A DNA stretch of 32,000 nucleotides, taken from contig NC_017080.1 in NCBI RefSeq assembly GCF_000284115.1, positions 1,260,001 to 1,292,000 on the forward strand, in the 5' to 3' direction. Below, piece after piece: positions 3,063 to 27,859 of the stretch. Under the pieces are notes generated by a model, which saw only the letters and a list, made by a program, of their open reading frames with translations, was not told where the DNA came from and did not search any database. Position numbers and translations under genes: made by a program. How positions within the stretch are numbered: the stretch's first letter is position 1; each line of letters starts with the position of its first letter. The DNA comes from Phycisphaera mikurensis NBRC 102666 (GTDB taxonomy: Bacteria; Planctomycetota; Phycisphaerae; Phycisphaerales; Phycisphaeraceae).

Positions 3063-3293
3063 ATGCTGGTCGCATTCTCCAACCGGCTCGGATGCGGCGG
3101 CTCGCTGCTGGTCAGCCTCGTGGGCTCCATCGTGCTGATCGTCGCGATGCTCGGCCTCAACGCCTGCTTCACCCGCGGCGCCCCGCTGGTGGTCCCCGGT
3201 CCCGACGCCCCGGCATCGGTGGGCGAGGCGGTCGGCGGGACCGAGGCTTCGGCCACGCCGCGGACCGCCGCGGAAAGGGAGGCGTCGGGCTGA
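3063..3293 (+). CDS. Possible small lipoprotein or membrane peptide (76 aa)
   Basis: High GC3. The N-terminus has a hydrophobic segment ending in a lipobox-like LNAC (LVSLVGSIVLIVAMLGLNAC). Its last ~12 codons and its stop codon lie inside palindromic element copy A, so the 3' end, or the whole ORF, may be fortuitous. Confidence 0.3.
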   Translation: MLVAFSNRLGCGGSLLVSLVGSIVLIVAMLGLNACFTRGAPLVVPGPDAPASVGEAVGGTEASATPRTAAEREASG

Positions 3294-3303
3294 CGGTCCG
3301 CGG
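3258..3303. repeat. Palindromic element copy A (CCGCGGACCG-N26-CGGTCCGCGG), between convergent gene ends
   Basis: Perfect 10-nt inverted arms at 3258-3267 and 3294-3303. The right arm plus flank TGACGGTCCGCGGATCCG (3291-3308) is identical to 10701-10718. Confidence 0.85.
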
Positions 3304-3314
3304 ATCCGGACGAT

Positions 3315-4049
3315 TCAGAAGCCGAACAAGTCGGCGGCGGTGGCGGCGTCGAGCGCATCGGCCGGGGTGTCCGCCTCGCCCGGGAGCGCTTCCGCGAGGT
3401 CCGGCATGAGGGCCGCCGGATCGAGCCCGTGCGCGCGGAGCAGCAGCAGCGGGTCGCGGTCGATCAGCACGGCCAGCCCGAGCATCGTGCATAGGAGGTG
3501 CTTGCACGCGGAGTCGCCGTCGAGGCAGTCGCAGCTGGTGGCGACGCCGCGCCTCTGCGGCAGCAGCGGGCAAGCGGGTTCGGACAGGGCCGCCTCCACC
3601 GCGGCGGGCAGTTGGCCGGCGGCGAGAGCGGACGCGTCGGCGGGGGTCAGCTGCGCCCGCAGCGACGCCACGGCGTTTCTCCACCACCGCTTCGGCGGCG
3701 GCTTCAGCCGGAACGCCGTCTCGTACGTCTCCAAGCCGTAGACGCGCCCGTCGGCCCCGCCGCCCTCGCGGGCGGTGGTCGCCCGCGCGTCGCCGTCCTT
3801 CACCTGCAGGTCGACCAGGCAGTGGTGGCGGAGGTAGCCCTTTGCCTTGGTCGCCCGCGACGCGCTGCCGGCGTAGCGGAGCGACGCCTCGAAGAAGGCG
3901 GTGCCCAGGAGCGTGCGCGTCTGCTGGCGGCCCTCCGCCGCGACGGGCCGGATCGCGCCCCACCGCTTCGGCGGCTTGGCGATGAGCTCCAGCGCCTCCT
4001 CCTTCAGCTCGCCCAGCGGCTTGCTCGGGCCGGAGTCGTACCAGCTCAT
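3315..4049 (-). CDS. SWIM zinc-finger domain protein (partner of the SNF2 helicase)
   Basis: 244 aa. It carries a CxC-x7-CxH SWIM signature (SCDCLDGDSACKHLLC). Its ATG overlaps the SNF2 stop as ATGA (4046-4049). Confidence 0.8.
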   Translation of the reverse strand: MSWYDSGPSKPLGELKEEALELIAKPPKRWGAIRPVAAEGRQQTRTLLGTAFFEASLRYAGSASRATKAKGYLRHHCLVDLQVKDGDARATTAREGGGADGRVYGLETYETAFRLKPPPKRWWRNAVASLRAQLTPADASALAAGQLPAAVEAALSEPACPLLPQRRGVATSCDCLDGDSACKHLLCTMLGLAVLIDRDPLLLLRAHGLDPAALMPDLAEALPGEADTPADALDAATAADLFGF

Positions 4050-6412
4050 CCGAAGGCGTCCAGATCGAGGCGGACCAGGTTCAGCAGCGCGTCGTCATCG
4101 AGTTCGGTGAGCTTCAGCTCGCCGGTGTCTCCTTCGCCCGGGAGCACCGCCCCGGCGAGCGCCCGCTTGTCTTCGATCATGGCGTCGATCTTCTCCTCGA
4201 TGGTGCCGCGGGTGATCATCGTGTGCACGAAGACGTTGCGCTTCTGGCCGATGCGGAAGGCCCGGTCGGTCGCCTGGTCCTCGACGGCGGGGTTCCACCA
4301 GCGGTCGAAGTGAACGACCTGCGCGGCGGCCGTGAGGTTCAAGCCCACGCCGGCGGCCTTGAGCGAGAGCACGAGGCTCGGTGGGCCGTCCTCCGCCTGG
4401 AAGCGGGCGACGATCTTCTTCCGCTTGGCCACCGGGACGCCGCCGTGGATCGCGTCGCCGCGGCGGCCGAAGACATCCGCGAGCAGGTTCCGCAGCGGGT
4501 CGATCACCTCGCGGAACTGCGTAAACACCAGCACCCGCTCGTCGGCCTCGGCGAGCCGCTCGGCGAGCTCGACCAGGCGCCTCATCTTCCCGGACTGCCG
4601 CGGCTCGTAGCCGCCCTCGCCGGTGAGCTGGTCGGGGTGGTTGCAGCACTGCTTCAGCCGCGTGAGCGTCTGCACGACCAGGCCCTTCCGGCGGATGTCG
4701 TCGGCCCCGTCGAGCTGCTCGGCGAGCCGGTCGACAGTGGCCTCGTAGAGCTTCACCTGCTTCGGCGTCAGCTCGCACCAGGTTCTGGTGACGGTCTTGT
4801 CGGGTAGATCCGAGATCACCGACTTGTCGGTCTTGCTCCGCCGGAGCAGGTAAGGCTGCACCAACCCGCGGATCCGGCCGTACCTCGCGGAGCCCCGGTC
4901 GGGTTCCTCCGACCCATCGGCTTCGGATCCGCGGACCGTCGCCTCTTTGAGGCCATCTCCGCCACGGTCCGCGGATTCGCGGTCGAGCCGCGCGAGCAGC
5001 TTCTTGAAGCCCACCCGCGAGCCGAGCAGCCCGGGGTTCAGGAAGTCGAACAGCGACCACAGGTCCGACAGGCGGTTCTCCACCGGCGTGCCGGTCATCG
5101 CGATCCGCGCCGGCGCCGGGATCTTCTTGACCGCGCGTGCCTGCTTCGTTGCGGGGTTCTTGATCGCCTGCGCCTCGTCGAGGATGACGCGGCTCCACGG
5201 GCACAGCGCGAGCCAGTCCAGCCGGCCCGCCATGGCGTAGGTGGTGACGACGAGGTCGCGCCCGCGGAAGGCCTTCGCCGGCGTTCTCCCGCGGGCCGCC
5301 GCCTCGGCCCGCTCCAGGCGGTCGCCCCCGGAGGTGCCCGGGTGGAGCAGCTCGACCGCGAGGTCGGGCGTGAACCTTTTGGCTTCCTCCTCCCAGTTGT
5401 GCAGGAGGCTCGCCGGCACGACCAGCAGGCTCGGCGGCCGCGGGCCTTCTTCCTTGTCGGCGCGCAACGCCGCGAGCACCTGCAGCGTCTTGCCCAGGCC
5501 CATGTCGTCGGCGAGGCAGGCGCCCAGCCCGAGCCCGCCGAGGAAGCGGAGCCAGGCGACGCCCTCTTGCTGATACGGCCGCAGCGTCGCGCGCAGGCCC
5601 GGGATGCTCGCGGGTTGCAGCCGCGCCGGGTCGCGCAGCCGGGCCGCGGTCTCGCGGAAGGCGCCGCCGGCGGTGGCGTGCAGCCAGGGCTCGCCGTCCC
5701 CGTCCAACGCCTCTTCTGTAGCGCCCGCCGAGCCGCCGAGCATCCGCATCGCCGCGAGCAGCGTCACGCCGTCGAGATTCTGCCGGCTCAGCGCGTGCAG
5801 CCGGGCGATCGCCTGCCGGAGCTGCTCCGCGTCCACCGCCGCCCAGCGACCCTTGAGCAGCACGAGCGTCTCGCCGGTCGCGTCGTCGTCCATCAGCCCG
5901 TCGGCTTCCTCGGCCGAGAGCGTCGCATCACCCAGGGCGAGGGCGGCGTGGAAGTCCAGCAGCGCCTCCGCCCCGACACGCGAAGCCGTGCCGCCGATCT
6001 TCACGTCCACCTTCGGCTTCGCCCGCTTCTTCCACCAGTCCGGCAGCCTCGCCTCCAGGCCGGCGTCCCGCATCTCCGGGACGCCCCGCAGGAACGCCGT
6101 CGCCATCGCGACGTCGAACCGCAGCGGGTGGTAGACGTGCCTGCTCGCGACGAGCTCCCGCAGCCAGGGCAGCCGCTCGCCCGCCGCGTGCAGGGGCGCC
6201 AGCAGCCCGGCCAGGCCCGCCGCGTCGCCCGCCTCCGCCCGCTCCCGCGCGGCCGCGAGCAGGCGCTGGCGCCCGGTCCGGCCGCTTCCTTCCCTCGTCT
6301 CCACGCTCGCGAGGAACGCGAACGGCCGCTCCGCGTCGTCGGGATTCTCGACCAGGCGGAGGACGACCCGCACCGCTTGAGCTTCCCCGCGTTGTCGACG
6401 CTGACCCGTCAC
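4046..6412 (-). CDS. SNF2/RapA-family DEAD-like helicase (HelZ-like)
   Basis: Motif I LADDMGLGKTLQ, motif II ILDEAQAIKN, motif III MTGTPVENRL, and C-terminal lobe motifs VLVFTQF, SLKAAGVGLNLT and QATDRAFRIGQKR. I trimmed track ORF 4046..6796 to the in-frame GTG at 6412, which overlaps the stop of the upstream membrane-protein gene as GTGA. Sequence upstream of 6412 is better explained by the other frame. Confidence 0.9.
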   Translation of the reverse strand: MTGQRRQRGEAQAVRVVLRLVENPDDAERPFAFLASVETREGSGRTGRQRLLAAARERAEAGDAAGLAGLLAPLHAAGERLPWLRELVASRHVYHPLRFDVAMATAFLRGVPEMRDAGLEARLPDWWKKRAKPKVDVKIGGTASRVGAEALLDFHAALALGDATLSAEEADGLMDDDATGETLVLLKGRWAAVDAEQLRQAIARLHALSRQNLDGVTLLAAMRMLGGSAGATEEALDGDGEPWLHATAGGAFRETAARLRDPARLQPASIPGLRATLRPYQQEGVAWLRFLGGLGLGACLADDMGLGKTLQVLAALRADKEEGPRPPSLLVVPASLLHNWEEEAKRFTPDLAVELLHPGTSGGDRLERAEAAARGRTPAKAFRGRDLVVTTYAMAGRLDWLALCPWSRVILDEAQAIKNPATKQARAVKKIPAPARIAMTGTPVENRLSDLWSLFDFLNPGLLGSRVGFKKLLARLDRESADRGGDGLKEATVRGSEADGSEEPDRGSARYGRIRGLVQPYLLRRSKTDKSVISDLPDKTVTRTWCELTPKQVKLYEATVDRLAEQLDGADDIRRKGLVVQTLTRLKQCCNHPDQLTGEGGYEPRQSGKMRRLVELAERLAEADERVLVFTQFREVIDPLRNLLADVFGRRGDAIHGGVPVAKRKKIVARFQAEDGPPSLVLSLKAAGVGLNLTAAAQVVHFDRWWNPAVEDQATDRAFRIGQKRNVFVHTMITRGTIEEKIDAMIEDKRALAGAVLPGEGDTGELKLTELDDDALLNLVRLDLDAFG
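4929..4974. repeat. Palindromic element copy B, inside the SNF2 CDS
   Basis: Perfect arms at 4929-4938 and 4965-4974. The extended left arm CGGATCCGCGGACCGTC (4924-4940) is the reverse complement of the copy A and copy C right arms. Confidence 0.85.
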
Positions 6413-6741
6413 GTCCGATCGAGCAGCAGGGGCACGTAGCCGATGACCGGGAGGAACGACGAGGCCAGCAGCCCGCCCACCAGCCAGCTGCCCGGCACCG
6501 CGGGGATCAGCAGCCAGCCGACGACGCCGCTGGCGACCAGGGCGACGCCCGCCGGCAGGAGCCAACGCCCGCAGGCCGCGTTGAGGCGGTACCAGGCCGC
6601 GTCGTCGCGGAGCGTCGTGCGTGTCCGGAGCCCGAAAAGCAGGTTCGGCTTCACCTTCCCGCGGATCAGCGGCACGGCGGACCCGACGCACATCAGGCCG
6701 AGAAGCAGGTTGAGGAGGCAGAGGAGGAAGGCCGGGTTCAT
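6409..6741 (-). CDS. SdpI/YhfL-like small integral membrane protein
   Basis: 110 aa with 3-4 hydrophobic helices. The motif KVKPNLLFGLRTRTTLRDDAAWYRLN resembles the SdpI-family N-x-GxRT-x-TL...W signature. GC3 is high. It overlaps both neighbours: ATGA with Uma2 and GTGA with SNF2. Confidence 0.6.
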   Translation of the reverse strand: MNPAFLLCLLNLLLGLMCVGSAVPLIRGKVKPNLLFGLRTRTTLRDDAAWYRLNAACGRWLLPAGVALVASGVVGWLLIPAVPGSWLVGGLLASSFLPVIGYVPLLLDRT

Positions 6742-7259
6742 CGCCGCTTCGGCCAGTCTCGGGGCAGCTGGATCGTGCAGCCGTCGTGCAGGTCAATCGT
6801 GTGCACCTCCGGCTGCTTCTGTGTCCGCGTGTCGTGCAGCGTCAGCGTCGGGGGATCCGCCAGCAAGTAGTGCTTCACGCCACGTTCGGCGTAGATCTCG
6901 CGCTTCTCGTTGCGGTCGCGGAGGTGCGTCGCCGGAGAGAGCACCTCGACGATCAGCGCTGGAGCTTCCCGGATGAAGGTGTCGTCCTCGTGCCCGCAGA
7001 GCACGCTGATGTCCGGACGCACGATCAGGTCCTCGGCCAGGATCCAGTCGACCTCGTTGACGAGTTCGCAGTCGCCGCAGGCATCCCGGGCGTCGAGCTG
7101 TGCGTGGAGCGCCGCGAGGATGCGAGCGGAGAAACGGCCGTGCGGCCGCCCCGGTGACGGCGACATCGCGATCGCGTGCCCGAACCAGAGCTCCCACTCC
7201 CCCTCCCACCGCTTGTAGTCGTCGACGGTGTAGTGGGGGATGTGGTGAAGCGCGGGCAC
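6738..7259 (-). CDS. Uma2-family (DUF820) PD-(D/E)XK putative endonuclease
   Basis: 173 aa. Family pattern YKRWEGEWELWFGHAIAMSPSPGRPHG...RPDISVLCG...PALIVEVLSPATHLRDRNEKREIYAERGVKHYLLADP, which includes the PD...EVxS...K core. A GTG start at 7259 lies 4 nt after the helicase stop. Confidence 0.8.
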   Translation of the reverse strand: MPALHHIPHYTVDDYKRWEGEWELWFGHAIAMSPSPGRPHGRFSARILAALHAQLDARDACGDCELVNEVDWILAEDLIVRPDISVLCGHEDDTFIREAPALIVEVLSPATHLRDRNEKREIYAERGVKHYLLADPPTLTLHDTRTQKQPEVHTIDLHDGCTIQLPRDWPKRR

Positions 7260-7263
7260 GCGA

Positions 7264-9849
7264 TCACTTTACCCGCGGCCGGTGCCGATCCGCCGCCGCC
7301 TCCAGCTCCGCCGCCATCCGCGTGATCCGCTCCTCCCAGGTTTGGCTGCTCTGGTGCTGCTCGCGCAGCCGCTCGGCGAAGAGCGGGAAGCCCAGCGGGG
7401 TGAGCCGGTCGGGGCAGACGCAGACGATCTCGTCGGCGGCGAGGCTTTCCAAAGACGCGCGCAGGCGGGCGACCTCCAGCTGCCGCTCGAGCACCTCGCG
7501 CTTCGCCTGGGTGAGCAGCAGGTTGTCGGGGTCGAAGTCGGTGAAGACGTCGAAGAACAGTTCGCTGCTCGCCTGCAGGTGCTTGGTCGCCCGGTTCTCG
7601 CCGGGGTAGCCGGTCTGGATCAGGCCGGCGATCCGCGCGATGTCGCGGAACTGGCGGCGGGCCAGCTGGCCGGTGTCGACGCAGGCGAGGAGGTCCTCGA
7701 GCAGGTTCTCCGGCGAGAGCACCTCCGCCCAGAAGCCGACCTCGTGCGGCAGCGGGTCGTCGGTGAGCACCTCCACGCCGTAGTCGTTTACCGTCACCAC
7801 CACCGTCAGCGGCATCGCCCGCGTGAGCCGCAGCGCGAGCAGCGCCCCGAGCCCCTCATGCACGAGCCGGCCCAGCAGCGGGAAGAGGAAGTGGTGGTGG
7901 CCGTCGCGCGTGCGGACCTTCTCGATGAGCAGCTCGCCGGACCGCGGGATGCGCGACCAGTCCTCCTGCAGGCGGAGCAGCGGCTCGATCGCCCGCATCT
8001 CGGCGTTGTCGTAGACGCCGGCCACCGCGGCGTCGAGCCGGCGCCGCACCGCCGCGGCGAGCTGCGTGGACAGCGGGCTGCGGCCGCCGGCCCAGCGCGG
8101 CACGTTCCCGCGCGAGCCGCTCGCTCGTTTCACCTTCGCGACCATCTGCCGCACGCTCACCAGCTGCACGAGGTGGCCGGCGAAGACGAAGCGGTCGCCG
8201 GGCTTGAGGAAGCCGACGAAGTTCTCCTCGACCGTGCCCAGCCGCTTGGATCCCATCAGCACCGAGATCATCGCGTTGCTGGTGATCGTGCCGATGCCCA
8301 TGCGGTGGTCGCGGGCGACCTTCTGGCCCCCGACGCCGTAGAAGCCGGGCCGGTCCGGGTCCTCCACCACCCGCTCGAAACGCGGGTACGCCCGCAGGCT
8401 CTCGCCGCCGCGGACGACGAAGTCCAGGCACCAGCCGAACTCCTCGTCGGTGAGGTGGCGGTAGGACCAGGCGGTCCGCAGCTCCTCTTTCATCGCTTCG
8501 GCGTCGAAGCCGCCGCCGGCGGCCACCGTCACCAGGTGCTGCACCGCGACGTCCAGCGGGCGATCCAGCGGCACGCGGCTCTCGATCTCGCGGGCGTTTC
8601 CCGCGTCCCGCGCGGCCGCGAAGTCCAGCACCTCCAGCGCGTTGGTCGGCACGCCGATGATGCGCGACTTGACGCCCGGCTGGTGCCCGCTGCGGCCGGC
8701 CCGCTGCAGCATCCGCGCCACGCCCTTGGGGCTCGCGACCTGGATCACCTGCTCCACCGGCGAGAAATCGACGCCGAGGTCCAGCGAGCTGGTGCAGACG
8801 CAGACCTTCAGCTCGCCCGAGCGGAGCATCTCCTCCACCGCGTTCCGCGTCTCGCGGTCGATGGAGCCGTGGTGCAGCGCAACCTTCCCGAGCCACTGCG
8901 GCCTCGCCTCGCAGATCCGCGCGTACCAGATCTCGCTCTGGCTGCGGGTGTTGGTGAACAGCAGCGTCGAGGCCGCGGGCTCCAGCGCGTCCAGCACCGC
9001 GTCGAGCAGCACGATGCCCAGGTGGCCCGACCAGGGGAAGCGGTTCGCGACGCCGTCGCCGACTTCCCCTTTGCTCCCGCCGGGCAGAAGCGTCGTCAGC
9101 TCGAAGCCCGCGTCCTCGGGCCCCGCCAAGCGGCAGCCCTCGCGGGCTCGGCGGGTCGGCGGGTCGACGCCGAGCAGGCAGTCCTTCGCCTCTCCGAGAT
9201 TGCCCAGCGTTGCCGACAGCCCCCAGGTCTGCACGGCGGGGTTGAAGGTGCGGAGCCGCGCGAGGCCCAGCTCGGTCTGCGTGCCCCGCTTGGTCGAGAG
9301 CAGCTCGTGCCACTCGTCGACGACGATCGTCTCGAGCCCGCGGAAGGCTTCCTCCGCGTTGGCGTACGACAGCAGCACCGACAGCGACTCGGGCGTGGTG
9401 ACCAGGCACGTGGGCAGCTTCTTCCGCTGCTTCTGCCGCAGGGCCTGCGGCGTGTCGCTCGTTCGTTCCTGCACCGTCCAGGGCAGGCCGAGCGCCTCGA
9501 CCGGCCGCCTGAGGTTCTCGCGCGTGTCCACCGCGAGCGCACGCAGCGGCGTGATCCACAGCACGCGCGGGCCGACGGGGTCCATCGACGCCCAGGCGTC
9601 GCGGTCGGGGTGCTGCTGGATCCAGCGCAGCAGCGGACCGCCCCACACCGACAACGTCTTGCCCGTGCCCGTGGGCGCGTGGATCAGCCCCGACGCGCCG
9701 GCAAGCTGCCGCTCCCAAGCCTCCTTCTGGAAGGCCGCCGGCTCGCCCAGCGCCCCGCGGAACCAATCGAGGAAGGGCGATCCGGGCGGCGGCACGGGGA
9801 AGGTTAGGAGCAGGCCGGGTGAACCGGGACCACGCACCCGCAGACGCAC
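7264..9849 (-). CDS. Ligase-associated DEXH-box helicase (Lhr-core-like)
   Basis: Motif I IHAPTGTGKT, motif II VVDEWHEL, GLSATLGN, motif VI MLQRAGRSGH, plus a long Lhr-type C-terminal region. It sits directly downstream of the ATP-dependent ligase. The start is uncertain: GTG at 9849, or a later in-frame GTG near 9795 just before PFLDWF. Confidence 0.9.
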   Translation of the reverse strand: MRLRVRGPGSPGLLLTFPVPPPGSPFLDWFRGALGEPAAFQKEAWERQLAGASGLIHAPTGTGKTLSVWGGPLLRWIQQHPDRDAWASMDPVGPRVLWITPLRALAVDTRENLRRPVEALGLPWTVQERTSDTPQALRQKQRKKLPTCLVTTPESLSVLLSYANAEEAFRGLETIVVDEWHELLSTKRGTQTELGLARLRTFNPAVQTWGLSATLGNLGEAKDCLLGVDPPTRRAREGCRLAGPEDAGFELTTLLPGGSKGEVGDGVANRFPWSGHLGIVLLDAVLDALEPAASTLLFTNTRSQSEIWYARICEARPQWLGKVALHHGSIDRETRNAVEEMLRSGELKVCVCTSSLDLGVDFSPVEQVIQVASPKGVARMLQRAGRSGHQPGVKSRIIGVPTNALEVLDFAAARDAGNAREIESRVPLDRPLDVAVQHLVTVAAGGGFDAEAMKEELRTAWSYRHLTDEEFGWCLDFVVRGGESLRAYPRFERVVEDPDRPGFYGVGGQKVARDHRMGIGTITSNAMISVLMGSKRLGTVEENFVGFLKPGDRFVFAGHLVQLVSVRQMVAKVKRASGSRGNVPRWAGGRSPLSTQLAAAVRRRLDAAVAGVYDNAEMRAIEPLLRLQEDWSRIPRSGELLIEKVRTRDGHHHFLFPLLGRLVHEGLGALLALRLTRAMPLTVVVTVNDYGVEVLTDDPLPHEVGFWAEVLSPENLLEDLLACVDTGQLARRQFRDIARIAGLIQTGYPGENRATKHLQASSELFFDVFTDFDPDNLLLTQAKREVLERQLEVARLRASLESLAADEIVCVCPDRLTPLGFPLFAERLREQHQSSQTWEERITRMAAELEAAADRHRPRVK

Positions 9850-9889: not shown

Positions 9890-11635
9890 CTAGATCAAGC
9901 CGCGGAGAAAACCGACGGTGTCGGCTTCGTCGGCGCGCTTGTCGTCGCGGATGCGGGCCATCCGCGGGAAGCGGAGCGCGAGGCCGCTTCGGTGCCGCTT
10001 GCTCTCCTGCACGCCGTCGAAGGCGATTTCGAAGACGCGGCTGGGCTCGACCTCGCAGAAGGCGCCGCGGCCGCCGCGCCGGTGGCCCTTGATGAAGGCA
10101 TCGACCCGCGCGAACTCCGCGTCGGTGAGCCCCGAGTAGGCCTTCGTGACCGGAACCAGCTCGCCCCGGCCGGGTTGCTCGCCCGTCCAGAGCGCGAAGG
10201 TGTAGTCGGTGTAGAGCGTCGAGCGCCGGCCCGTGCCACGCTGGGCGTAGATCATGACGGCGTCGATCGCGTAAGGGTCGACCTTCCACTTCCACCACAG
10301 CCCGCGCTCGTCGCCGCTCTCCCGGGTCATGGCACGGCCGATCCCGTAAGGGGCGTCGCGACGCTTGAGCATGAAGCCCTCGACGTTGCGGGCCCGGCTC
10401 GACGCGCGGAGCGCACCCAGCGAATCCCAGGATCCGCCCTCGACGGCCGGGGAGAGGAGCAGCTTGCCGCCGGAAGCGTGGAACGCGTCGGCGGCGAGGG
10501 CCTCCAGCGCGGCGCGCCGCTGGTGGGTCGGCTCCGTGCGCAGGTCCGCGCCGCCGAGCTCGAGCACGTCGTAGGCCATGAAGACGACGGGGCGGTCCTC
10601 GAAGAGCGCGGGGTGGCGGGCTCTGCGGTTCAGCCGGCGCTGGAGGACCGCGAAGGGCTCCGGCAACCCGCGGACCGTCGGCGTTTGGAGCTCGAAAGCG
10701 TGACGGTCCGCGGATCCGTCCGCGTTCCGCCACGCGAGGATCTCGCCGTCGAGCACGGTGCCTTCGGGGAGCGTGGACGCCGCCGCGGCGACCTCGGGGA
10801 AGGTGCCGGTGATGAGCTCCTCGCCGCGGGACCACAGCCGGGCGCTGCCGCCGCGGCGGAGGAGCTGGCAGCGGATCCCGTCCCACTTCCACTCGACGCT
10901 CCAGTCGCTGCGGTCGCCGAGCTTCTCCCGGGGCGTCGCCTGGAGCTGCTGAGCGAGGCAGAAGGGGTAGGGGCGCGCCGCGTCGTCGGCCGCGGCGTCG
11001 GCGTCGGCGCCGCCGCCGCTGCCGCCGCTGCCGGCCGCTTGGCCGCCCGGCCGATCCGGTGCGGTCACCCGCTCCCACGCCGAGCGTGTGGGCGAGAAGC
11101 CGCCGGTCATGCGGTGCTGCATCACCGCCGCCGGCACGCCGGTGGCTTCGGCGAGGGCGTTGATGACGACCTTCTTCGCGGCCCCGAAGCGGAAGTTCCC
11201 GGAGATCAGCTTGTGGAACACGAGCCGCTGGGTCGCGTCGAGCCGGTTCCACGTCGCGAGGATCGCGGTCCGCTGCTGCCCCTCGCTCATGCGTTCGAGC
11301 GGGAGCACGCGCGTCTCGATGATCGAGGTCAGCGACTCGTCCTCGCCGGCCGCGGTCGGCGGCGGCAGCAGCAGCGACAGCGTCTCGGACAGGTCGCCGA
11401 CCACCGAGTGCGACTCGGCGATCAACCACGCCGGGAGCCCCGTGGCCTCGCCGCAGAAGGCCCGCAGCCGGTTGTACGGGACGCGCCGGATCAGCGACGT
11501 CCCGGTCAGCACCGCGAGCGCCCAGGCCGCGTCGTCGGCGTCCGCTTCGCGGAAGTAGGCCGCGATCGCCGCCGTCTTCTCGCTCGTCCGCGTGGTGCGG
11601 TCGACGGCGGTGAAGAGGGCGGTGAACGACTTCAA
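9890..11635 (-). CDS. ATP-dependent DNA ligase (ligase-associated damage-response type)
   Basis: Adenylation motif I VEWKWDGIR, plus LDGEILAW, VFMAYDVLE, EGFMLKRRDAPY and WWKWKVDP. N-terminal DNA-binding-domain-like start (M)KSFTALFTAVDRTTRTSEKTAAIAAYF, with TTG as the start codon at 11635. Confidence 0.9.
   Translation of the reverse strand: MKSFTALFTAVDRTTRTSEKTAAIAAYFREADADDAAWALAVLTGTSLIRRVPYNRLRAFCGEATGLPAWLIAESHSVVGDLSETLSLLLPPPTAAGEDESLTSIIETRVLPLERMSEGQQRTAILATWNRLDATQRLVFHKLISGNFRFGAAKKVVINALAEATGVPAAVMQHRMTGGFSPTRSAWERVTAPDRPGGQAAGSGGSGGGADADAAADDAARPYPFCLAQQLQATPREKLGDRSDWSVEWKWDGIRCQLLRRGGSARLWSRGEELITGTFPEVAAAASTLPEGTVLDGEILAWRNADGSADRHAFELQTPTVRGLPEPFAVLQRRLNRRARHPALFEDRPVVFMAYDVLELGGADLRTEPTHQRRAALEALAADAFHASGGKLLLSPAVEGGSWDSLGALRASSRARNVEGFMLKRRDAPYGIGRAMTRESGDERGLWWKWKVDPYAIDAVMIYAQRGTGRRSTLYTDYTFALWTGEQPGRGELVPVTKAYSGLTDAEFARVDAFIKGHRRGGRGAFCEVEPSRVFEIAFDGVQESKRHRSGLALRFPRMARIRDDKRADEADTVGFLRGLI
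10668..10713. repeat. Palindromic element copy C, inside the ligase CDS
   Basis: Perfect 12-nt arms, CCGCGGACCGTC (10668-10679) and GACGGTCCGCGG (10702-10713). The 20-mer CCCGCGGACCGTCGGCGTTT (10667-10686) is identical to 27813-27832 in an intergenic region. Confidence 0.9.
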
Positions 11636-12007: not shown

Positions 12008-12017
12008 GGCGGGCCGC

Positions 12018-16085: not shown

Positions 16086-16131
16086 CCGCGGACCGTAGGC
16101 CGCTTGCGCCTCCCGGGGCGGCGATCCGCGG
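16086..16131. repeat. Palindromic element copy F (19/20 arm match), 5' of tatD
   Basis: Left arm CCGCGGACCG at 16086-16095 and right arm CGATCCGCGG at 16122-16131, with the same 36-nt offset. A separate perfect 7-bp hairpin, CGGCGTC-cgga-GACGCCG, lies at 16071-16088. Confidence 0.65.
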
Positions 16132-16174: not shown

Positions 16175-16960
16175 ATGATCGACACCCACTGCCACCTCAC
16201 CTATCCCGGCATCGCCGAGCGTGTCGGCGACGTGGTGGCGGACGCTCGAGCGGCGGGCGTGGACCGGATGGTCTCGATCGGCACGGGGCCGGCGGACTCG
16301 GTCGCGGCCATCCAGGTCGCCCGCCGCTTCCCCGGCGTCGTGTTCGCCACGGCGGGCATCCACCCGCTGCACGCCGGCGAGGTCGGGGACGTCGCCGCCG
16401 CGACCGCGGAGCTGCGGCTGCTCTCGGTCGCCGAGGAGGTGGTGGCGCTCGGGGAGATGGGGCTCGACGCGCACCACGACCGGCCGCCGATGGCGGTGCA
16501 GCGGGCCGCCTTCGCGGCGCAGCTGACTCTCGCGGAAGAGACCGCCTTGCCGGTGGTGATCCACAGCCGCGAGGCGATCCCCGAGACGATCGAGATGATC
16601 CGGGCGACGGGCCTCCCCGCGGACCGCTTCCTCTTCCACTGCTTCAGCGGGACGGTCCGCGACCTCGACGCGATCCTCGCTTTTGGCGCGGGGATTGGTT
16701 TCACGGGCATCGTCACCTTCCCCGGCGCGGCGGCGGTCGCCGAAGCGAGCGACCGCGTGCCCCTCGACCGGCTCTTCCTCGAGACCGACAGCCCGTACCT
16801 CACGCCCGCCCCGCACCGCAAGGTGCGCATCAACGAGCCGAAGTACGTGCCGCGGGTCGCCGCGCTGCTCGCCGGGCGGCGGGGATTGGCGGTGGAGGCG
16901 CTGGCGGCGGCGTGCGACCGCAACGCAAGCCGCTTCTACGGCCTGCCCGAGCCGGCTTGA
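16175..16960 (+). CDS. tatD: TatD-family metal-dependent hydrolase/DNase
   Basis: MIDTHCHLTYP, GEMGLDAHH, VVIHSREA, FHCFSGT and LETDSPYLTP motifs. I trimmed track ORF 15971..16960 to the ATG at 16175. Confidence 0.9.
   Translation: MIDTHCHLTYPGIAERVGDVVADARAAGVDRMVSIGTGPADSVAAIQVARRFPGVVFATAGIHPLHAGEVGDVAAATAELRLLSVAEEVVALGEMGLDAHHDRPPMAVQRAAFAAQLTLAEETALPVVIHSREAIPETIEMIRATGLPADRFLFHCFSGTVRDLDAILAFGAGIGFTGIVTFPGAAAVAEASDRVPLDRLFLETDSPYLTPAPHRKVRINEPKYVPRVAALLAGRRGLAVEALAAACDRNASRFYGLPEPA
16617..16662. repeat. Element-like site T (19/20 arm match) inside tatD; status ambiguous
   Basis: CCGCGGACCG at 16617-16626 and CGGTCCGCGA at 16653-16662, with the same 36-nt offset. The spacer encodes the native conserved TatD FLFHCFSG segment. 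Confidence 0.4.
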
Positions 16961-21083: not shown

Positions 21084-21180
21084 GGCGGTTCGGCGGGGCG
21101 GGGGGTCCCGGCGAGCGGGAGGGGGCGGTCGGGGGAGCGGGCGGAGAACGCGGCACGGCGTGGCGTCGCCCAACGCCGGG

Positions 21181-21957: not shown

Positions 21958-21958
21958 C

Positions 21959-22858
21959 TCAGGCGGTGGCGAGGTTGGTGCGGGGTGCCATGACCGGCAC
22001 GTCCGCCCACTTCAGCGTGCGGACCAGCATCAGCAGCAGGCAGAAGGCGACGGCGAGCATCGCCCAGCCGGCGAGGTCGTGGAAGAGCCCCGCGGCGACG
22101 TCGGGGTAGTGGCCGTAGAGGATGACGGTGGGCACCACGCGGATGATGTTGGTCAGCACCGCGGCCACCGGGGAGAGCACCAGCAGCATCACCCGGACCG
22201 ACGGCAGCAGCGGCGTGCCGAAAGCGAAGGCGTAGGCGACGAGGACCAAGGCGAACATCATGCGCATGCCGTTGCACGCCTCGGCGACCATCACCGGGTG
22301 CCCGTTGTAGACGAGCATGTTCCCGCTGCGCTCGACGCCGAGGCCCAGCAGCGTGAAGACGAACTCCGCCGCCGCGGCCGTGTACTCCTGCAGCGGCATC
22401 GCCAGCTGCTGCCGGAAGATCCCCGGCACGGGCACGAGAAAGGCGAGCACGAGCACCGCCGGCCAGATCCGCCACAGCAGCGGCCGGCCGGCCACCGTCG
22501 TGATCGCGCCGAGCAGGCAGAGCACCGCGCCCCCGTGCCACGCGACCTGCAGGTTGGTCGCGCCGCCCCAGAGATGCACCGCCAGCCCCGCGGCGATCAC
22601 CGCCGGCCCGGCGAAGTCGTAGGCCGGTCGGGTCCGCTGGATGGCCGTCCAGCGGACGTGGCACAGCCAGCCGATGACGAACGGGACCAGCAGCACCTGG
22701 CTGGCTTCCTCGTCGCGCACGGCGATGTAGAGGATGTCGGCGAAGGCCCGGTAACACGCGGTCACCGCGAGCCCAACCAGCGTCAAGCCCACCGCGCAGC
22801 GTCGGAGGGTCCAGGCACCGCGATCGGCGGGGGCGTTCTGGAGGCGGGGGAGCGGCAC
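21959..22858 (-). CDS. Exosortase-family transpeptidase
   Basis: Polytopic membrane protein with a catalytic-triad-like layout: Cys in VAEACNGMRMM, Arg in LTNIIRVVP and His in LFHDLAGW. GTG start. Confidence 0.8.
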   Translation of the reverse strand: MPLPRLQNAPADRGAWTLRRCAVGLTLVGLAVTACYRAFADILYIAVRDEEASQVLLVPFVIGWLCHVRWTAIQRTRPAYDFAGPAVIAAGLAVHLWGGATNLQVAWHGGAVLCLLGAITTVAGRPLLWRIWPAVLVLAFLVPVPGIFRQQLAMPLQEYTAAAAEFVFTLLGLGVERSGNMLVYNGHPVMVAEACNGMRMMFALVLVAYAFAFGTPLLPSVRVMLLVLSPVAAVLTNIIRVVPTVILYGHYPDVAAGLFHDLAGWAMLAVAFCLLLMLVRTLKWADVPVMAPRTNLATA

Positions 22859-22909
22859 GGGCCTCTCCTATCGGTCAGCGGGGCCCGCGGTTCGAACGAA
22901 GAGCCAAAT

Positions 22910-22955
22910 CCGCGGACCGCCGCGCTGCGGGCCGCTGCGGCGCGACGGTCCGCGG
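22910..22955. repeat. Palindromic element copy D, in the divergent exosortase/ileS intergenic region
   Basis: Perfect arms at 22910-22919 and 22946-22955. Two extra CCGCGG sites lie nearby, at about 22885 and 22968. Confidence 0.85.
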
Positions 22956-23026
22956 CGCGATCGGGGGCCGCGGGCGTGCCGCTTGGGCCGGTGCGGCGGG
23001 GGGGCGGCAGCCTCTACGCTGCGCCG

Positions 23027-25915
23027 ATGGCCGCGCCCCAAGAGAAAGCATCCGCGAAGAAAGCCGGGAAGAACGCGTACAAGGACACGCTGAACCTGCC
23101 CAGGACCGCCTTCGCGATGAAGGCGAATCTCGTCCAGAGCGAGCCGCAGAGCGTGAAGCGGTGGGCGAAGCTCGGCGTGTACCGGCAGCTGCGGGCGCGG
23201 GCGGCGGAGGCGAAGGCCGCCGGCGATCCGCTGCCCGCCTACGTCGCGCACGACGGCCCGCCCTACGCCAACGGCGACATCCACCTGGGCCACCTGCTCA
23301 ACAAGGTGCTCAAGGACCTGGTGGTCCGCAGCCGCTCGATGGAGGGCTTCGACTGCCCCTACACGCCCGGCTGGGACTGCCACGGCCTGCCCATCGAGCA
23401 CCGCGTCATGCAGGAGCTCGGCCCCGGGGGGCGCGAGCTCGAGCCGCTGAAGATCCGCAGGAAGTGCGCCGCCTACGCCGGCAAGCACGTCAAGACGCAG
23501 CGTCAGCAGATGGAGCGGCTGCTGACGCTGGCCGACTACGAGAACCCGTACCTCACGATGGACTCGCGCTACGAGGCGGGCGTGCTGGAGGTCTTCGCCG
23601 GGATGCTCGAAGCGGGGCTGGTGTACCGCGACCTCAAGCCGGTTCACTGGTCGGTGGACAACCAGACGGCCCTGGCCGAGGCGGAGCTGGAGTACCACGA
23701 CCGGGAGGACACCTCCGTGTACGTGCGCTTCGCGATGAACAACAGCGGGTCCGAGGGCCTGCTGATCTGGACGACGACGCCCTGGACGCTGCCGGCGAAC
23801 CTGGCCGTCGCGGTGCACCCGCGGATGGAGTACGGGCTCTACGAGATCGCGGGCAACGACCCGACGTGGATCGCGGTGGCGCTCGCGCCAGCGGTCGCGG
23901 CGAAGCGGGAGGTCGGGCTGCCCGGGCCGCTGAAGGTCGTGAAGGGCGAGGCCCTCGTCGGCCGCACCTACGCCCACCCTTTCGTCGGCCGCGAGGGCCG
24001 CGTCGTGCCCGCCGAGTACGTCACCGACGAGGACGGCACCGGGCTGGTGCACACCGCGCCGGGCCACGGCGCCGAGGACTATCAGACCGGGCTGAGGGAA
24101 GGACTGGACGTCTACTGCCCGGTGCTGCCCGACGGCACCTACGACGACACCGTGCCGGACTGGCTGCGGGGCAAGAGCATCTGGGAGGCGAACCAGGAGA
24201 TCGTTGAGCGCCTCGAGCGCGACGGCGTCCTCTTCTTCGACGAGCGCTTCACCCACAGCTACCCGCACGACTGGCGTGGCAAGCAGCCGGTGATCTTCCG
24301 CGCCACCGAGCAGTGGTTCTGCGCCGTCGACAAGCCGGCGACCGGACCGCTCGCGGGCAAGACGCTGCGGCAGGCCGGCCTGGACGCCGTCGGGAAGGAC
24401 ACGAGCTTCCAGCCGGCGTGGGGGCAGAACCGCCTGCGCGGGATGATCGAGAGCCGGCCGGACTGGTGCCTCTCGCGGCAACGCAGCTGGGGCCTGCCGA
24501 TCCCGGCCTTCTTCGACGCCCAGGGCCGGCCGCTGCTCACGGCCGCGAGCGTCCGCGCCGTCGCGGAGGTGATCGGCGACAGGGGCAGCGACGCCTGGTT
24601 CTTCCTTCCCGCCGCGGACCTGCTCGCCCGGTACGACCCCGCCGCCGACCCGGACGCACCGGCCTGGGCCGGCGACGACGCGCTCGCCTCGCTTGTCAAG
24701 GGCGGCGACACCTTCGACGTCTGGTTCGAGTCCGGCTCCAGCTGGCACGCGGTGCTGCGGGAGGGCTGGCGGGAGGCCCAGGCCGAGCCCGCCTCCGGCG
24801 AAGCGTTCCCGGCCGACCTCTACCTGGAAGGCAGCGACCAGCACCGCGGCTGGTTCCAGCACTCGCTGCTCCCGGCGCTCGCCGTCACCGGCCGGCCGCC
24901 CTTCGAGGGCGTGCTCACGCACGGCTTCATGGTCGACCGCGACGGCCGCAAGATGAGCAAGTCGCTGGGCAACGCGCTGGAGGTCGCCACGCTGATGCAG
25001 CAGCACGGCGCCGACGTCTGCCGCTGGTGGGTCGCCTCGCTGAACACCGACAACGACGTCAAGGTCGACGAGGCCTTCTTCAAGACCGCCGGTGAGGCCT
25101 ACCGCAAGGTCCGCAACACGCTGCGTTTCCTGCTGTCCAACCTCGACGGCTTCCGCATGCGGGGCGGCCGCGTGAAATTCGAAGCGGCCGACGCGACCAG
25201 CCTCGACGCGTGGCTCACCGGCGAGCTGGTGACGCTCTCGGTGTCCGTGCGGCGGGCGTACCGCGAGAACCGCTACCGCCGGGCGCAGGAGCTGCTCTTC
25301 GGCTTCTGCAACGAGACGCTCTCGGGCGTGTACCTCTCGGCCGTGAAGGACCGGCTGTACTGCGACGAGGCGGACGGGCGTCGGCGCCGCCGGACGCAGA
25401 CGACGCTCTACCGCGTGACCACGGTTCTGGTCCGTCTGCTCGGACCGATCCTGCCGCACACGGCCGACGAGGCCTGGGCGGCGCTCCACCCCGACGACGA
25501 CGAGGCCTGCGTGCACCTGTGCCGCTTCGCGGACGTCGCGAAGATCGCCGAGACGCCGGTGAGCGAGGCCTGGCCGGCGGTGATGGAGGCTCGGAAGCGC
25601 TGGATGCTCGCCCTCGAGCAGCACCGCGAGCGGGCGAAGGCCTGCGGCGGCGCGGACGCGCCGCTGGACCTGGGCCTCGTGCTGCCCGCCGCCGAGCTGC
25701 CCGAGGGCTTCGACCCCGTGGAGCTCGCTGACCTCTGCGGCGTGAGCCGCGTGGAGGTCGGCGAGGCGGAGGAGGTCGCCGTCGTGGACCTCTCGCGGCA
25801 GCCGCGCTGCGAGCGCAGCTGGAAGCGGGACGGGACCGTGAAGCCCCGGCCGGACAACGGCCTGCTGTCCGACCGGGACTGGCGGGTGGTGTCGTCGCTG
25901 CACGCGAGCGGGTGA
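23027..25915 (+). CDS. ileS: Isoleucine--tRNA ligase
   Basis: HIGH motif PPYANGDIHLGH, KMSKS motif KMSKSLGN, CP1 editing-domain-like TTPWTLPAN, and WCLSRQRSWG. I trimmed track ORF 21761..25915 to the ATG at 23027 (MAAPQEKASAKKAGKNAYKDTLNLPRTAF). Confidence 0.95.
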   Translation: MAAPQEKASAKKAGKNAYKDTLNLPRTAFAMKANLVQSEPQSVKRWAKLGVYRQLRARAAEAKAAGDPLPAYVAHDGPPYANGDIHLGHLLNKVLKDLVVRSRSMEGFDCPYTPGWDCHGLPIEHRVMQELGPGGRELEPLKIRRKCAAYAGKHVKTQRQQMERLLTLADYENPYLTMDSRYEAGVLEVFAGMLEAGLVYRDLKPVHWSVDNQTALAEAELEYHDREDTSVYVRFAMNNSGSEGLLIWTTTPWTLPANLAVAVHPRMEYGLYEIAGNDPTWIAVALAPAVAAKREVGLPGPLKVVKGEALVGRTYAHPFVGREGRVVPAEYVTDEDGTGLVHTAPGHGAEDYQTGLREGLDVYCPVLPDGTYDDTVPDWLRGKSIWEANQEIVERLERDGVLFFDERFTHSYPHDWRGKQPVIFRATEQWFCAVDKPATGPLAGKTLRQAGLDAVGKDTSFQPAWGQNRLRGMIESRPDWCLSRQRSWGLPIPAFFDAQGRPLLTAASVRAVAEVIGDRGSDAWFFLPAADLLARYDPAADPDAPAWAGDDALASLVKGGDTFDVWFESGSSWHAVLREGWREAQAEPASGEAFPADLYLEGSDQHRGWFQHSLLPALAVTGRPPFEGVLTHGFMVDRDGRKMSKSLGNALEVATLMQQHGADVCRWWVASLNTDNDVKVDEAFFKTAGEAYRKVRNTLRFLLSNLDGFRMRGGRVKFEAADATSLDAWLTGELVTLSVSVRRAYRENRYRRAQELLFGFCNETLSGVYLSAVKDRLYCDEADGRRRRRTQTTLYRVTTVLVRLLGPILPHTADEAWAALHPDDDEACVHLCRFADVAKIAETPVSEAWPAVMEARKRWMLALEQHRERAKACGGADAPLDLGLVLPAAELPEGFDPVELADLCGVSRVEVGEAEEVAVVDLSRQPRCERSWKRDGTVKPRPDNGLLSDRDWRVVSSLHASG

Positions 25916-25960
25916 AGCCCGACCGCGGGCGGACGCTCAATCGGGCGTCCGGGTCAGCCG

Positions 25961-26392
25961 ATGGACCGGCGGAGGCAACCCCTGGACCTGCGCGGCATCG
26001 ACGAGCTCAGAACCGAGGCGATGGCGGACGCCGTCGCTGCGCTGGGGGACCCCGGCGGCGAGGGCGCCGTCTGGCACCACGGCTTCAGCCACGGCGTGGC
26101 GGGAGGCGGCGCGGCGACGCTGGTCGCCGAAGGTCCGGCGGGGATCCGGGTGCGGATCCGCCTCGCGCCCGGGGACGCGGGAGCGCCCCCGGCGGGGTCG
26201 GCGGACGCCGCGGGCGGCAGCGGCGGGCCGACCACGCCCACCCGGCTGATCTCCGCGACGGTGCTGAAGCTGCGGCGGCAAGGCCACGGCGTCATCCGCC
26301 TCGAGCCCGACGCCGGAGCCGACGCCGCGCCGGGCTGGGACGGGCGGGGGTGGCTCCAGCGGCTCGGCGACAGCCCGGCGGATGCCGCCTGA
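25961..26392 (+). CDS. Hypothetical protein (143 aa, Gly/Ala/Asp-rich)
   Basis: ATG start and strong GC3 bias in this frame. No recognisable motif. It sits between ileS and the HD-GYP gene. Confidence 0.4.
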   Translation: MDRRRQPLDLRGIDELRTEAMADAVAALGDPGGEGAVWHHGFSHGVAGGGAATLVAEGPAGIRVRIRLAPGDAGAPPAGSADAAGGSGGPTTPTRLISATVLKLRRQGHGVIRLEPDAGADAAPGWDGRGWLQRLGDSPADAA

Positions 26393-26482
26393 AGCGCCCG
26401 GGGCGGCGGGTTCAAGTCGGGGCGTCGCGGACCCGATCCCTCCGGGCCGGACCCGAGCCGCGACCAGGAGTAGACAAACCGC

Positions 26483-27748
26483 ATGGAGATGAAGGGGAAG
26501 AAGATCCTTGTGAGCGGGCTCCGCGTGGGGGAGACGCTCAGCGCCGACATCGTCGGGCCCGATGGCGTCCTGCTGCTGCGGCACGGCGTCCGGGTCGAGG
26601 CCGCGCTGCTGGAGCGGCTCCGGTCCCGCGGCATCGAGGAGGTTCACCTCAACGGCGACGTCGCCGCCGACGCGGCCGCGCCCGTGGGCGGCCCCGGGGA
26701 GGCGGCCTACGAGGAGCCGCCGGACCCCGAGCCGACCGTGCCGCTGAGCGAGCCGCTCGCCCCGGAGTCGTACGAACCCCGCGACGAGATCTGCACGCCG
26801 CTGCCGCGCCTGCGCGAGCGGGAGTTCGGCGAGGCGGCACGGGTCGCCGAGGACTCGATGGGGACGGCGATCCAGCGGTACGGGTCGCTGGCCGGCGCCT
26901 TCCGGGGCGGCCGGCTGTCCGAGGGCAGCGCCGCCGTGCAGATGCTGCTGGGCCTGCGGCGGGTGGGCGAGCGCGACATCGACCTCGTCACGCTCATGCT
27001 CGTGCTGGACCGGCCCGGCATCGGCCCGCTGTTGCAGCACGCGGTGCGGCAGTCGGTGGTCGCGATGCGGCTGGGGCGGCGGCTGGGGCTGGGCAACGAC
27101 GCCGTGCTCGACGCCGGGCTGGTCGCGCTCTTCAGCGACATCGGGATGTCCGGCGTCGCCGAGGAGCTGATCGCCCGCCCGGGCCGCCTGAGCCCCACCG
27201 AGTGGGAGCGTGTCCACCGGCACTGCGGCGCGTCCTCGGACCTGGTCGCGAAGATGACGGGCATCCGCCCGATCATCGCCCACGCGGTCTACCAGCACCA
27301 CGAACGCCCCAACGGCGGCGGGTACCCCCGCGGCCGGCGCGGCGTTTTCCTGCACCCGCTCGCGCGGATCGCCTCGGTGGCCGACGTCTTCACCGCGGTG
27401 ATGGAGCACCGGCCGCACCGGCCGGCCCGCTCGCCGCACCACGCCGTCTGCGCGGCGCTGGAGGGCGTGAAAGCCGGCCGCCTCGACGCCCGCGTCGTGC
27501 GGGCGCTGCTGGCGGAGGTTTCGCTGTTCCCGGTGGGCACCCCCCTGCACCTCTCCGACGGCCGGATCGGCACCGTGTACCGGACCGACGCGGAGGTGGC
27601 CGATCGCCCCGTCCTCACCTTCGACGACGGCCAGAAGCCCGGGAAGCTGGAGCTGCGGCTGCGGCCGGAGCTCAAGATCGTCGGGGTGGGCGACGCGAAG
27701 CCCGAGGCGATCCCGGAGCCCGGGGAGCCGCTGGCCCCGGCGGCGTGA
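26483..27748 (+). CDS. DUF3391-like N-terminal domain plus HD-GYP-type domain protein (degenerate HD dyad)
   Basis: An AGGAG lies 13 nt upstream of the ATG. The N-terminus KKILVSGLRVGETLSADIV...LLERLRSRGIEEVHL resembles the DUF3391 domain found on HD-GYP proteins. The C-terminal region has QHAVRQS...LFSDIGM...HRHCG...YQHHERPNGGGYPRG...VADVFTA. Confidence 0.85.
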   Translation: MEMKGKKILVSGLRVGETLSADIVGPDGVLLLRHGVRVEAALLERLRSRGIEEVHLNGDVAADAAAPVGGPGEAAYEEPPDPEPTVPLSEPLAPESYEPRDEICTPLPRLREREFGEAARVAEDSMGTAIQRYGSLAGAFRGGRLSEGSAAVQMLLGLRRVGERDIDLVTLMLVLDRPGIGPLLQHAVRQSVVAMRLGRRLGLGNDAVLDAGLVALFSDIGMSGVAEELIARPGRLSPTEWERVHRHCGASSDLVAKMTGIRPIIAHAVYQHHERPNGGGYPRGRRGVFLHPLARIASVADVFTAVMEHRPHRPARSPHHAVCAALEGVKAGRLDARVVRALLAEVSLFPVGTPLHLSDGRIGTVYRTDAEVADRPVLTFDDGQKPGKLELRLRPELKIVGVGDAKPEAIPEPGEPLAPAA

Positions 27749-27813
27749 CGCCGCCGGGGCGGGGCCTGCGCCGCGTACGCGGCAGCCGCTCCGGGTTCCG
27801 CGCCGCCCCCGTC

Positions 27814-27859
27814 CCGCGGACCGTCGGCGTTTCCGGCTCCGATCGGCCGCGGTCCGCGG
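27814..27859. repeat. Palindromic element copy E, between convergent gene ends
   Basis: Perfect arms at 27814-27823 and 27850-27859. It shares a 20-mer with copy C. A 9-bp tandem array follows immediately. Confidence 0.85.

Follow-up and report, generated by a model that had tools for sequence, protein, structure and literature searches.

A dispersed inverted-repeat family with a fixed 26-nt spacer in Phycisphaera mikurensis and its uncultured relatives

The window analysed here is a stretch of 32,000 nt of the Phycisphaera mikurensis NBRC 102666 chromosome (contig NC_017080.1, positions 1,260,001 to 1,292,000), and its TatD protein matches that of P. mikurensis with 100% identity. With genes called by third-position G+C and Pfam, this G+C-rich DNA (72-78%) has the content of an ordinary chromosomal stretch, namely accD and genes for a histone-H1-like protein, a DUF2203 protein, an SNF2 helicase, a Uma2 nuclease, an Lhr helicase, an ATP-dependent DNA ligase, a bicarbonate transporter, TatD, a large TPR protein, an exosortase, isoleucyl-tRNA synthetase, an HD-domain protein, a cyclophilin and UxaC. 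Scattered between and within these genes are copies of an element composed of two inverted 10-nt arms separated by 26 nt, CCGCGGACCG-N26-CGGTCCGCGG, which belongs to a dispersed, high-copy family specific to the P. mikurensis clade. Repeats of the repetitive extragenic palindromic (REP) kind are known mainly from Proteobacteria, and their origin, spread and persistence are debated.

Seven arm pairs in an ordinary chromosomal stretch

An earlier annotation of this DNA, made from its letters alone (the sequence-only reading), had listed seven such sites, and a re-scan allowing up to three mismatches recovered exactly these, five with 20/20 matching arm positions and two with 19/20 (Table 1). The longer identities that it reported between distant copies, an 18-mer common to 3291 and 10701 and a 20-mer common to 10667 and 27813, are both present, and the copies fall into the location classes that it gave, i.e. 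between convergent 3′ ends, in divergent 5′ regions and within genes. All three intragenic copies are read in one frame, ADR-x8-TVR(G/D).

Table 1 Copies of the element in the window, with their arms and gene context
Copy	Position	Arms	Location	Neighbouring genes or encoded peptide	Further features
1	3258..3303	exact	between convergent genes (3′ ends)	12 nt beyond the stop of a minus-strand gene (3315-4049); downstream of the DUF2203 gene (2547-3020, plus strand)	non-consensus spacer
2	4929..4974	exact	inside the SNF2 helicase gene (minus strand)	read S-ADR-GGDGLKEA-TVRG	palindrome extends weakly to 4917-4986
3	10668..10713	exact	inside the ATP-dependent DNA ligase gene (minus strand)	read S-ADR-HAFELQTP-TVRG	
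4	16086..16131	19/20, right arm CGATCCGCGG	divergent 5′ region	ends 43 nt upstream of the TatD start codon (16175)	
5	16617..16662	19/20, right arm ...GCGA	inside the TatD gene (plus strand)	read P-ADR-FLFHCFSG-TVRD	
6	22910..22955	exact	divergent 5′ region	exosortase gene (minus strand, start <=22867) and isoleucyl-tRNA synthetase gene (plus strand)	spacer itself a strong hairpin, giving a 19-bp stem
7	27814..27859	exact, 12-nt arms TCCCGCGGACCG	between convergent genes (3′ ends)	66 nt past the HD-domain gene stop; 71 nt before the cyclophilin gene stop	consensus-like spacer beginning TCGGCGTTT

Three nucleotides past the right arm of copy 7 begins a 9-nt tandem repeat (GCCTGACCT, 7.3 copies, 98% matches; 27862-27927), which occupies the remainder of the convergent gap up to the cyclophilin gene stop.

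The pairs lie far above chance, as the sequence-only reading had supposed. Dinucleotide-preserving shuffles yield 0.15 matches on average at up to three mismatches and never more than one, compared to the seven observed, and base composition alone predicts ~3e-4 sites per 32 kb. The exact 10-mer occurs 12 times in the window, in every case within a pair and never solitary, while its variants with one mismatch are in line with chance (35, with 27.6 expected); hence the unit is the pair and not the 10-mer. No second recurring inverted-repeat family was found within the window. A restriction-modification signature of the palindromes contained in the arms, CCGCGG (SacII site) and CGGWCCG (RsrII site), was rejected, since neither is avoided, and the count of CGGWCCG equals expectation after removal of the arms. 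CCGCGG is over-represented throughout the window (123 versus 84 +/- 8 expected), with only 13 occurrences located in arms.

Distribution and anatomy within the clade

Loci of relatives, designated by L numbers, were obtained as contigs encoding close relatives of window proteins, fetched by TatD, the ligase and the AAG glycosylase. A second P. mikurensis region (L089) holds four sites in 20.6 kb, and L027, whose TatD is 85% identical, holds six in 20.8 kb. The family is also present in the uncultured relatives represented by L083, L085/L087 and L091, i.e. with L027 in at least four relatives. A lineage represented by L028 was at one point considered to lack the family; this was dropped, as L091, a contig of the same sample, carries three copies. 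Across about 140 kb not chosen by the motif the density is ~1 site per 5 kb, from which we estimate ~500-800 copies per 3.9-Mb genome by extrapolation.

The fixed start-to-start offset of 36 nt, put forward on the basis of the seven window sites, persists in a larger set of copies. In 160 kb of DNA that carries the family, 50 exact pairs occur at a spacer of 26 nt and practically none at other spacings, the exceptions being one 27-nt variant and matches at spacer 19 that are internal echoes of the same elements. Among copies from loci not chosen by the motif, the offset is kept in 22 of 23, and there are 23 pairs of CCGCGG at a distance of 40 nt, where the background is ~2-3, every one of the 23 being a family member. 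The 27-nt variant, an arm pair (ACGCGGACCG...CGGTCCGCGG) at L083:16201-16247 inside the Lhr helicase gene, shows no indel relative to the P. mikurensis ortholog and is the sole off-spacing near-match found.

The family was encountered in no other species representative. A search for the exact motif in 596 Gb of sequence, with each of 185,579 species represented by one genome, gave only 26 stretches with one match each, from unrelated high-G+C organisms and mostly simple long hairpins. P. mikurensis itself is without a match in that scan despite its many exact copies, and seems to be absent or masked there. A metagenome scan gave 53 stretches, ~30 of which derive from one low-coverage marine assembly. 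A phage or plasmid origin was set aside: viral contigs contain no match to the motif, and the plasmid collection consulted is one without the P. mikurensis plasmid. A chance or compositional artefact is likewise excluded, by the shuffles, by the 26 singletons and by the single spacing peak.

A position profile was built from 53 copies, in which the invariance of the arms is partly by construction, as the copies were collected via the arms. Arm length is 10-14 nt, and the only internal symmetry, CCGCGG and CGGWCCG, is unable to form a hairpin within one arm. The CCGCGG core is never mutated, the mismatches being located at arm positions 1 and 7-10. A does not occur at element position 0, nor T at position 47, and the outer flanks show a weak preference for GRAT...ATYC, i.e. 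weak RAT/ATY. CGTC is present in some copies, inside the unit at arm positions 9-12 and not terminal. That the spacers largely differ from one another, as had been noted before, is correct insofar as some are unrecognisable; they are not unrelated, however, since the profile reveals a weak palindromic consensus, YSGSCGnTTnCGGCCnnAAnGGGCSR, with a weak symmetric TT...AA signal, 10 nt apart, around the centre, and individual spacers span the whole range up to near-consensus, as in L085:2032 (TCGGGGTTTTCGGTGAAAAAGCCCGA) and the ligase copy of L087. Folding, which the sequence-only reading had proposed as a check, pairs the arms as a stem in every copy, but only some copies fold significantly better than their shuffles.

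Two further arrangements were observed in relatives. At L091:6025-6086, within a 228-residue gene of unknown function, a nested or part-duplicated copy contains two sequences resembling the left arm and two resembling the right, with an offset of 16 nt. In L085, the stretch from the TatD stop codon to the element at L085:2032 holds imperfect tandem copies of GCGGGCAGTGGTA (L085:1980-2030).

About half of all copies are within genes or overlap gene ends. The hosts of internal copies are the genes for SNF2 helicase, DNA ligase, TatD, RdgB/Ham1, AAG glycosylase and RecG, next to Lhr (the 27-nt-spacer variant), one unknown protein and one aminotransferase. The frame ADR-x8-TVRG is used by at least four of five internal copies. 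The predominance of genome-maintenance genes matches that of intragenic REPs, which are often located in genes for replication and repair (Di Nocera et al. 2013, PMC3733652), with the caveat that the loci obtained through TatD, the ligase and AAG do not sample this bias independently.

Insertion, arm maintenance and likeness to known repeats

The ligase and SNF2 copies are, as judged from alignments and solved structures, in-frame insertions into clade-specific loops. In an alignment of 40 ligases, 16-19 extra residues holding the element are present in only four sequences, all from the Phycisphaera clade, and the SNF2 copy is situated within a loop ~23-26 residues longer than in solved SNF2 proteins. 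The ligase copy of L087, CCGCGGACCGTCGGGCTTTTGAG followed by CTCAAAACGCCGACGGTCCGCGG, is a 46-nt palindrome with two mismatches, the state that would be expected shortly after insertion of a perfect palindrome. The RdgB and aminotransferase copies, with 6-7 extra residues relative to distant solved homologs, are ambiguous.

After insertion, the spacer appears to drift while the arms and their spacing stay. Between the ligase genes of P. mikurensis, L083 and L087, which differ at ~20% of nucleotides gene-wide, the arms show 0/20 differences and the spacers 4-8/26. In the ligase copy of all three lineages, the T favoured at element position 11 comes from a rare arginine codon, CGT (8% usage), that has been kept. 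Similarly, orthologous intergenic and junction copies (upstream of TatD, upstream of the exosortase gene and at the junction of the DUF1611 stop and the AAG start) keep their arms across lineages, with spacers and flanks that are unalignable.

Where arms do change, the change tends to be mirrored. The L086 ligase arms (CCGCGGGCGG/CCGCCCGCGG) carry two mirrored complementary double changes that alter four amino acids and keep a 10/10 stem; at L085:1067, the counterpart in location of window copy 4, both arms are changed alike at position 2; and the AAG copy has G at arm position 9 on both sides, and one of its stem pairs is A-T (codons GGA, CGT) or G-C (GGG, CGC) depending on lineage, through synonymous changes. 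Using arm pairs at other spacings as the null, fully compensated variant sites amount to two independent cases of 18 at spacing 26 and 0 of 128 elsewhere (p ~0.01). These mirrored changes are suggestive of a base-paired stem, or alternatively of one arm being corrected against the other, and as they tend to be complementary, the arms probably pair as a hairpin.

This combination of features resembles, and departs from, several known systems. REPINs, as characterised by Bertels and Rainey (2011, PMC3116915), consist of two inverted ends, invariant in sequence and set at a fixed offset, with a less conserved spacer between them, and in their definition spacer length and hairpin capacity matter and compensatory changes occur. 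The Phycisphaera family shares the conserved inverted pair, the less conserved spacer of set length and the lineage-specific, vertically persistent copies, estimated here too in the hundreds, with a start-to-start offset of 36 bp instead of 71 or 110 bp. A hairpin is predicted for it as well, and the mirrored changes at three loci may be compensatory. In contrast to REPINs, whose ends are each a ~20-25-nt imperfect REP palindrome, its arms of 10-14 nt are not REP palindromes; the unit is about half the size and lacks a GTAG tag, half of the copies lie inside genes or overlap their ends, and two appear to have arisen without insertion. Rickettsia palindromic elements (RPEs) and the intragenic GTAG/CGTC-tagged REPs (PMC3733652) are likewise in-frame palindromic repeats that add a short loop peptide, often in replication and DNA-repair hosts and, for the CGTC families, without a dedicated transposase. 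A peptide absent from orthologs is added in the ligase and SNF2, and not in TatD or AAG. RPEs are larger, however (~100-150 bp), and belong to Rickettsia, and the tagged REPs have a 5-13 bp stem, a 2-20 nt loop and an unpaired terminal GTAG or CGTC, whereas here a 10-bp stem would enclose a 26-nt loop, with weak RAT/ATY flanks in place of a tag.

Enterobacterial REPs and bacterial interspersed mosaic elements (BIMEs) are, as here, short G+C-rich palindromes placed just past stops and between convergent genes, yet they are essentially extragenic, form mosaic clusters and are tied to TnpA-REP, the REP-associated tyrosine transposase (RAYT). Enterobacterial REPs have been proposed to stabilise mRNA 3′ ends. 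Finally, the DNA uptake sequences (DUS) of Neisseria, the uptake signal sequences (USS) of Haemophilus and the cyanobacterial HIP1 are short motifs that also arise in coding sequence by point mutation. DUS are found preferentially in genome-maintenance genes and, as inverted pairs, serve as terminators. Unlike the Phycisphaera 10-mer, which occurs only in inverted pairs, these motifs work singly, with no fixed partner distance; a single over-represented motif, as in DNA uptake sequences, is not what is seen here. The literature searched contains no description of the motif nor of repeats in Phycisphaera, and Rfam 15 gives no match to the window at or above gathering score, which also removed a known RNA family from consideration. 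The two suggestions of the sequence-only reading, a REP/BIME- or RPE-like family and one not previously described, are thus upheld, the first by the dispersed, lineage-specific, high-copy occurrence, some in-frame insertions and the REPIN-like architecture.

Based on these analyses, we consider it probable, with substantial reservations set out below, that the copies represent an undescribed REP/REPIN/RPE-like family of hairpin elements in P. mikurensis and its close uncultured relatives. The ancestral unit would have been a near-perfect palindrome of ~46-54 nt, (GRAT)CCGCGGACCG-TCGGCGTTTT...AAAACGCCGA-CGGTCCGCGG(ATYC), spreading as insertions between genes and as in-frame insertions in protein loops that tolerate them. 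Following insertion the inner 26 nt would drift, with the two 10-nt arms and the spacing retained. The arms would most likely pair as a 10-bp G+C-rich stem in single-stranded DNA or in a transcript, and the stem might then be read sequence-specifically by a protein, which could be a host factor, a mobilising enzyme that is RAYT-like or specific for structure in some other way, or both of these. As the element is palindromic, a stem could form on either strand. Copies 3-12 nt past stops or between convergent genes could stabilise or terminate the mRNA 3′ end, as proposed for REPs, and those 23-43 nt upstream of start codons, or across them, are other positions that would suit a stem available on either strand. 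We infer the hairpin in vivo, the reader or mobilising protein and a physiological role; what the sequences show directly is the motif and its geometry, its excess over chance, its occurrence in relatives, the inserted state of two coding copies, the conserved arms and their mirrored changes.

The insertions are also what a minimal miniature inverted-repeat transposable element (MITE) would predict, with the arms as terminal inverted repeats of a DDE insertion sequence located elsewhere, whose transposase moves 46-54 bp derivatives. DDE transposition requires synapsis of two ends bound as duplex DNA. Terminal inverted arms, a variable interior and dispersed copies are all accommodated by such an origin, but a 26-bp interior is too short to bend for this synapsis, and arms that are conserved at orthologous positions across ~20% divergence do not behave like those of a decaying MITE. 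Moreover, neither a parent element nor a transposase gene was seen in the window and the ~150 kb of related loci, and copies built in place (see below) are left unexplained. We therefore regard this origin as quite improbable.

Genes adjoining close copy pairs were inspected as candidate transposases and rejected: L066 holds a small membrane protein gene, and not a RAYT, between its copies, and the two copies of L051 are downstream of an actin-like ATPase gene, again not a RAYT. Uma2-family (PD-(D/E)XK-like) nuclease genes recur (window 6738-7268, L086:2276-2758, L028:10428-10997) and stand beside helicase, ligase and exosortase genes in several lineages, and no link to the repeats was found. 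Two other features of the window are recorded here. The lysine/alanine-rich protein gene at 1738-2346, with a weak histone-H1-like (HC2) match below the Pfam cut-off, carries a 15-nt tandem repeat (6.7 copies, 2211-2310) and is kept beside ndk and accD in a second assembly. Between the cyclophilin gene and UxaC there is a short tandem repeat rich in C and T (ACTTCCTC, 3.8 copies, 28584-28619).

Copies apparently built in place and possible implications of the family

Several findings weigh against an inserted, protein-read hairpin element. The hairpin model does not predict an exact length for a 26-nt loop of free sequence. Mirrored spacer positions pair no better than column composition predicts, i.e. 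there is no covariation inside the spacer, so that its palindromic character is to be seen as one of descent and not of maintained pairing; an extended spacer stem maintained by covariation was rejected for this reason. There is no terminal GTAG or CGTC tag and no internal REP hairpin in the arms, and none of the genes annotated by Pfam in the window and in ~150 kb of related loci encodes a Y1_Tnp/HUH or other transposase. Neither a target-site duplication nor an empty site was seen, the intergenic DNA being saturated and unalignable across three lineages. The statistics of the mirrored changes derive from three or four independent events. The few single-arm mismatches in coding copies are all C-A and none G-U on the sense strand, and thus give no support for selection on sense RNA. 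Lastly, the TatD site has no indel relative to 56 homologs and the AAG copy none relative to human AAG or 50 homologs, and insertion is therefore not the sole source of copies.

As the TatD site aligns without an indel, its arms arose by substitution in place. The TatD spacer encodes FLFHCFSG, which includes the conserved family motif HCFSG, and only four close TatD sequences read ADR...TVRD around it, the other homologs reading GER...[ST]xxE. Carriers differ from non-carriers at 9-10 of 20 arm positions and at only 1-3 of 26 spacer positions, such that about half of the arm positions have been rewritten while the HCFSG motif between them has stayed as it was. Between one carrier and another, 0-1 of 20 arm positions differ, compared to 9 of 20 in the same columns between two non-carriers. 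With the peptide held fixed, codon usage yields the arm sequence ~1% of the time. The TatD tree inside the clade lacks support on a single versus a repeated gain of the site. In AAG, the copy spans the overlap of the DUF1611 stop and the AAG start (ATGA) in three lineages (L089:9973-10018, L091:9973-10018 and L027:17882-17927), with the AAG start codon within the spacer, where the predicted arm stem would enclose it. The right arm overlies a widespread peptide, VRPRIG, and the left arm (RGR) is clade-specific. Here, paired synonymous changes to rare codons (GGA, 11% usage; CGT, 8%) convert a G-C pair to the consensus A-T. Chance is not credible as a source of the in-place copies. We tentatively propose that, besides insertion, new copies are made in place within conserved coding sequence, through substitutions directed at the consensus, a possibility that we nonetheless hold to be rather doubtful.

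Sites built in place, including rare codons that shift arms toward the consensus, would be readily understood if the arms were a bipartite operator in duplex DNA, bound 36 bp apart by a dimeric or tetrameric protein such as a nucleoid-associated protein or a very broad regulator. A paired protein-binding site was also the alternative named by the sequence-only reading, although the evidence agrees better with its first suggestion. Host selection would then create and keep sites, and the spacer would need only the right length and bendability, in agreement with a strictly kept 26-nt spacing around free sequence, the weak symmetric TT...AA signal with its halves 10 nt apart, the CCGCGG core that is never mutated and the sites 23-43 nt upstream of start codons in divergent promoter regions. 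The mirrored double changes of the L086 ligase, in two pairs, are nevertheless unexpected for independent half-sites of one protein, and the 500-800 sites estimated per 3.9-Mb genome, of which half are intragenic or at 3′ ends, do not resemble a regulon. In addition, the ligase and SNF2 copies are insertions of the full palindrome. An operator of this type is consequently an unlikely explanation of the family.

A further process able to generate copies in coding sequence is molecular drive, as for DNA uptake sequences and HIP1, where biased uptake or repair would convert near-matches genome-wide, coding DNA included. Such a drive would be compatible with in-place copies at variable residues, with the preference of coding copies for the frame ADR-x8-TVRG and with hosts biased toward genome-maintenance genes. 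The same bias is reportedly found for Neisseria uptake sequences, and it is seen for REPs. We consider drive highly improbable, as the 10-mer is never single and no cloud of one-mismatch near-matches surrounds it, as CCGCGG and CGGWCCG are not avoided and CGGWCCG outside the arms is at chance, and as the mirrored changes point to pairing. Moreover, no uptake or repair system is known to have a specificity resembling a bipartite target of 20 nt with an exact spacing.

The hairpin-element family thus remains the reading we favour, and the strict 26-nt spacing with a free spacer, together with the in-place TatD and AAG sites, is not accounted for by known models. De novo formation of REP-like repeats has been named an open question by Di Nocera et al. 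(PMC3733652), and the present family is small, discrete and easily scored, being defined by 20 bases and one spacing. It belongs to a phylum that has been little studied, and orthologous copies are at hand in several lineages at ~80% protein identity. Three processes can be read from its sequences, namely insertion (ligase, SNF2), maintenance with co-evolution of the arms (ligase, junctions) and apparent birth in place (TatD, AAG). If birth in place is true, a host factor may read the arm pair, with selection recruiting sites preferentially in genome-maintenance genes, and the family would then be a functional network of cis-elements and not selfish DNA; alternatively, a mechanism may exist that copies one arm onto a position 26 nt away. 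As the element rewrites loops of DNA-repair enzymes and overlaps the AAG start codon, it may affect the expression of genome-maintenance genes, and the motif offers a handle for finding the reader protein, if such a protein exists, in a cultured organism.

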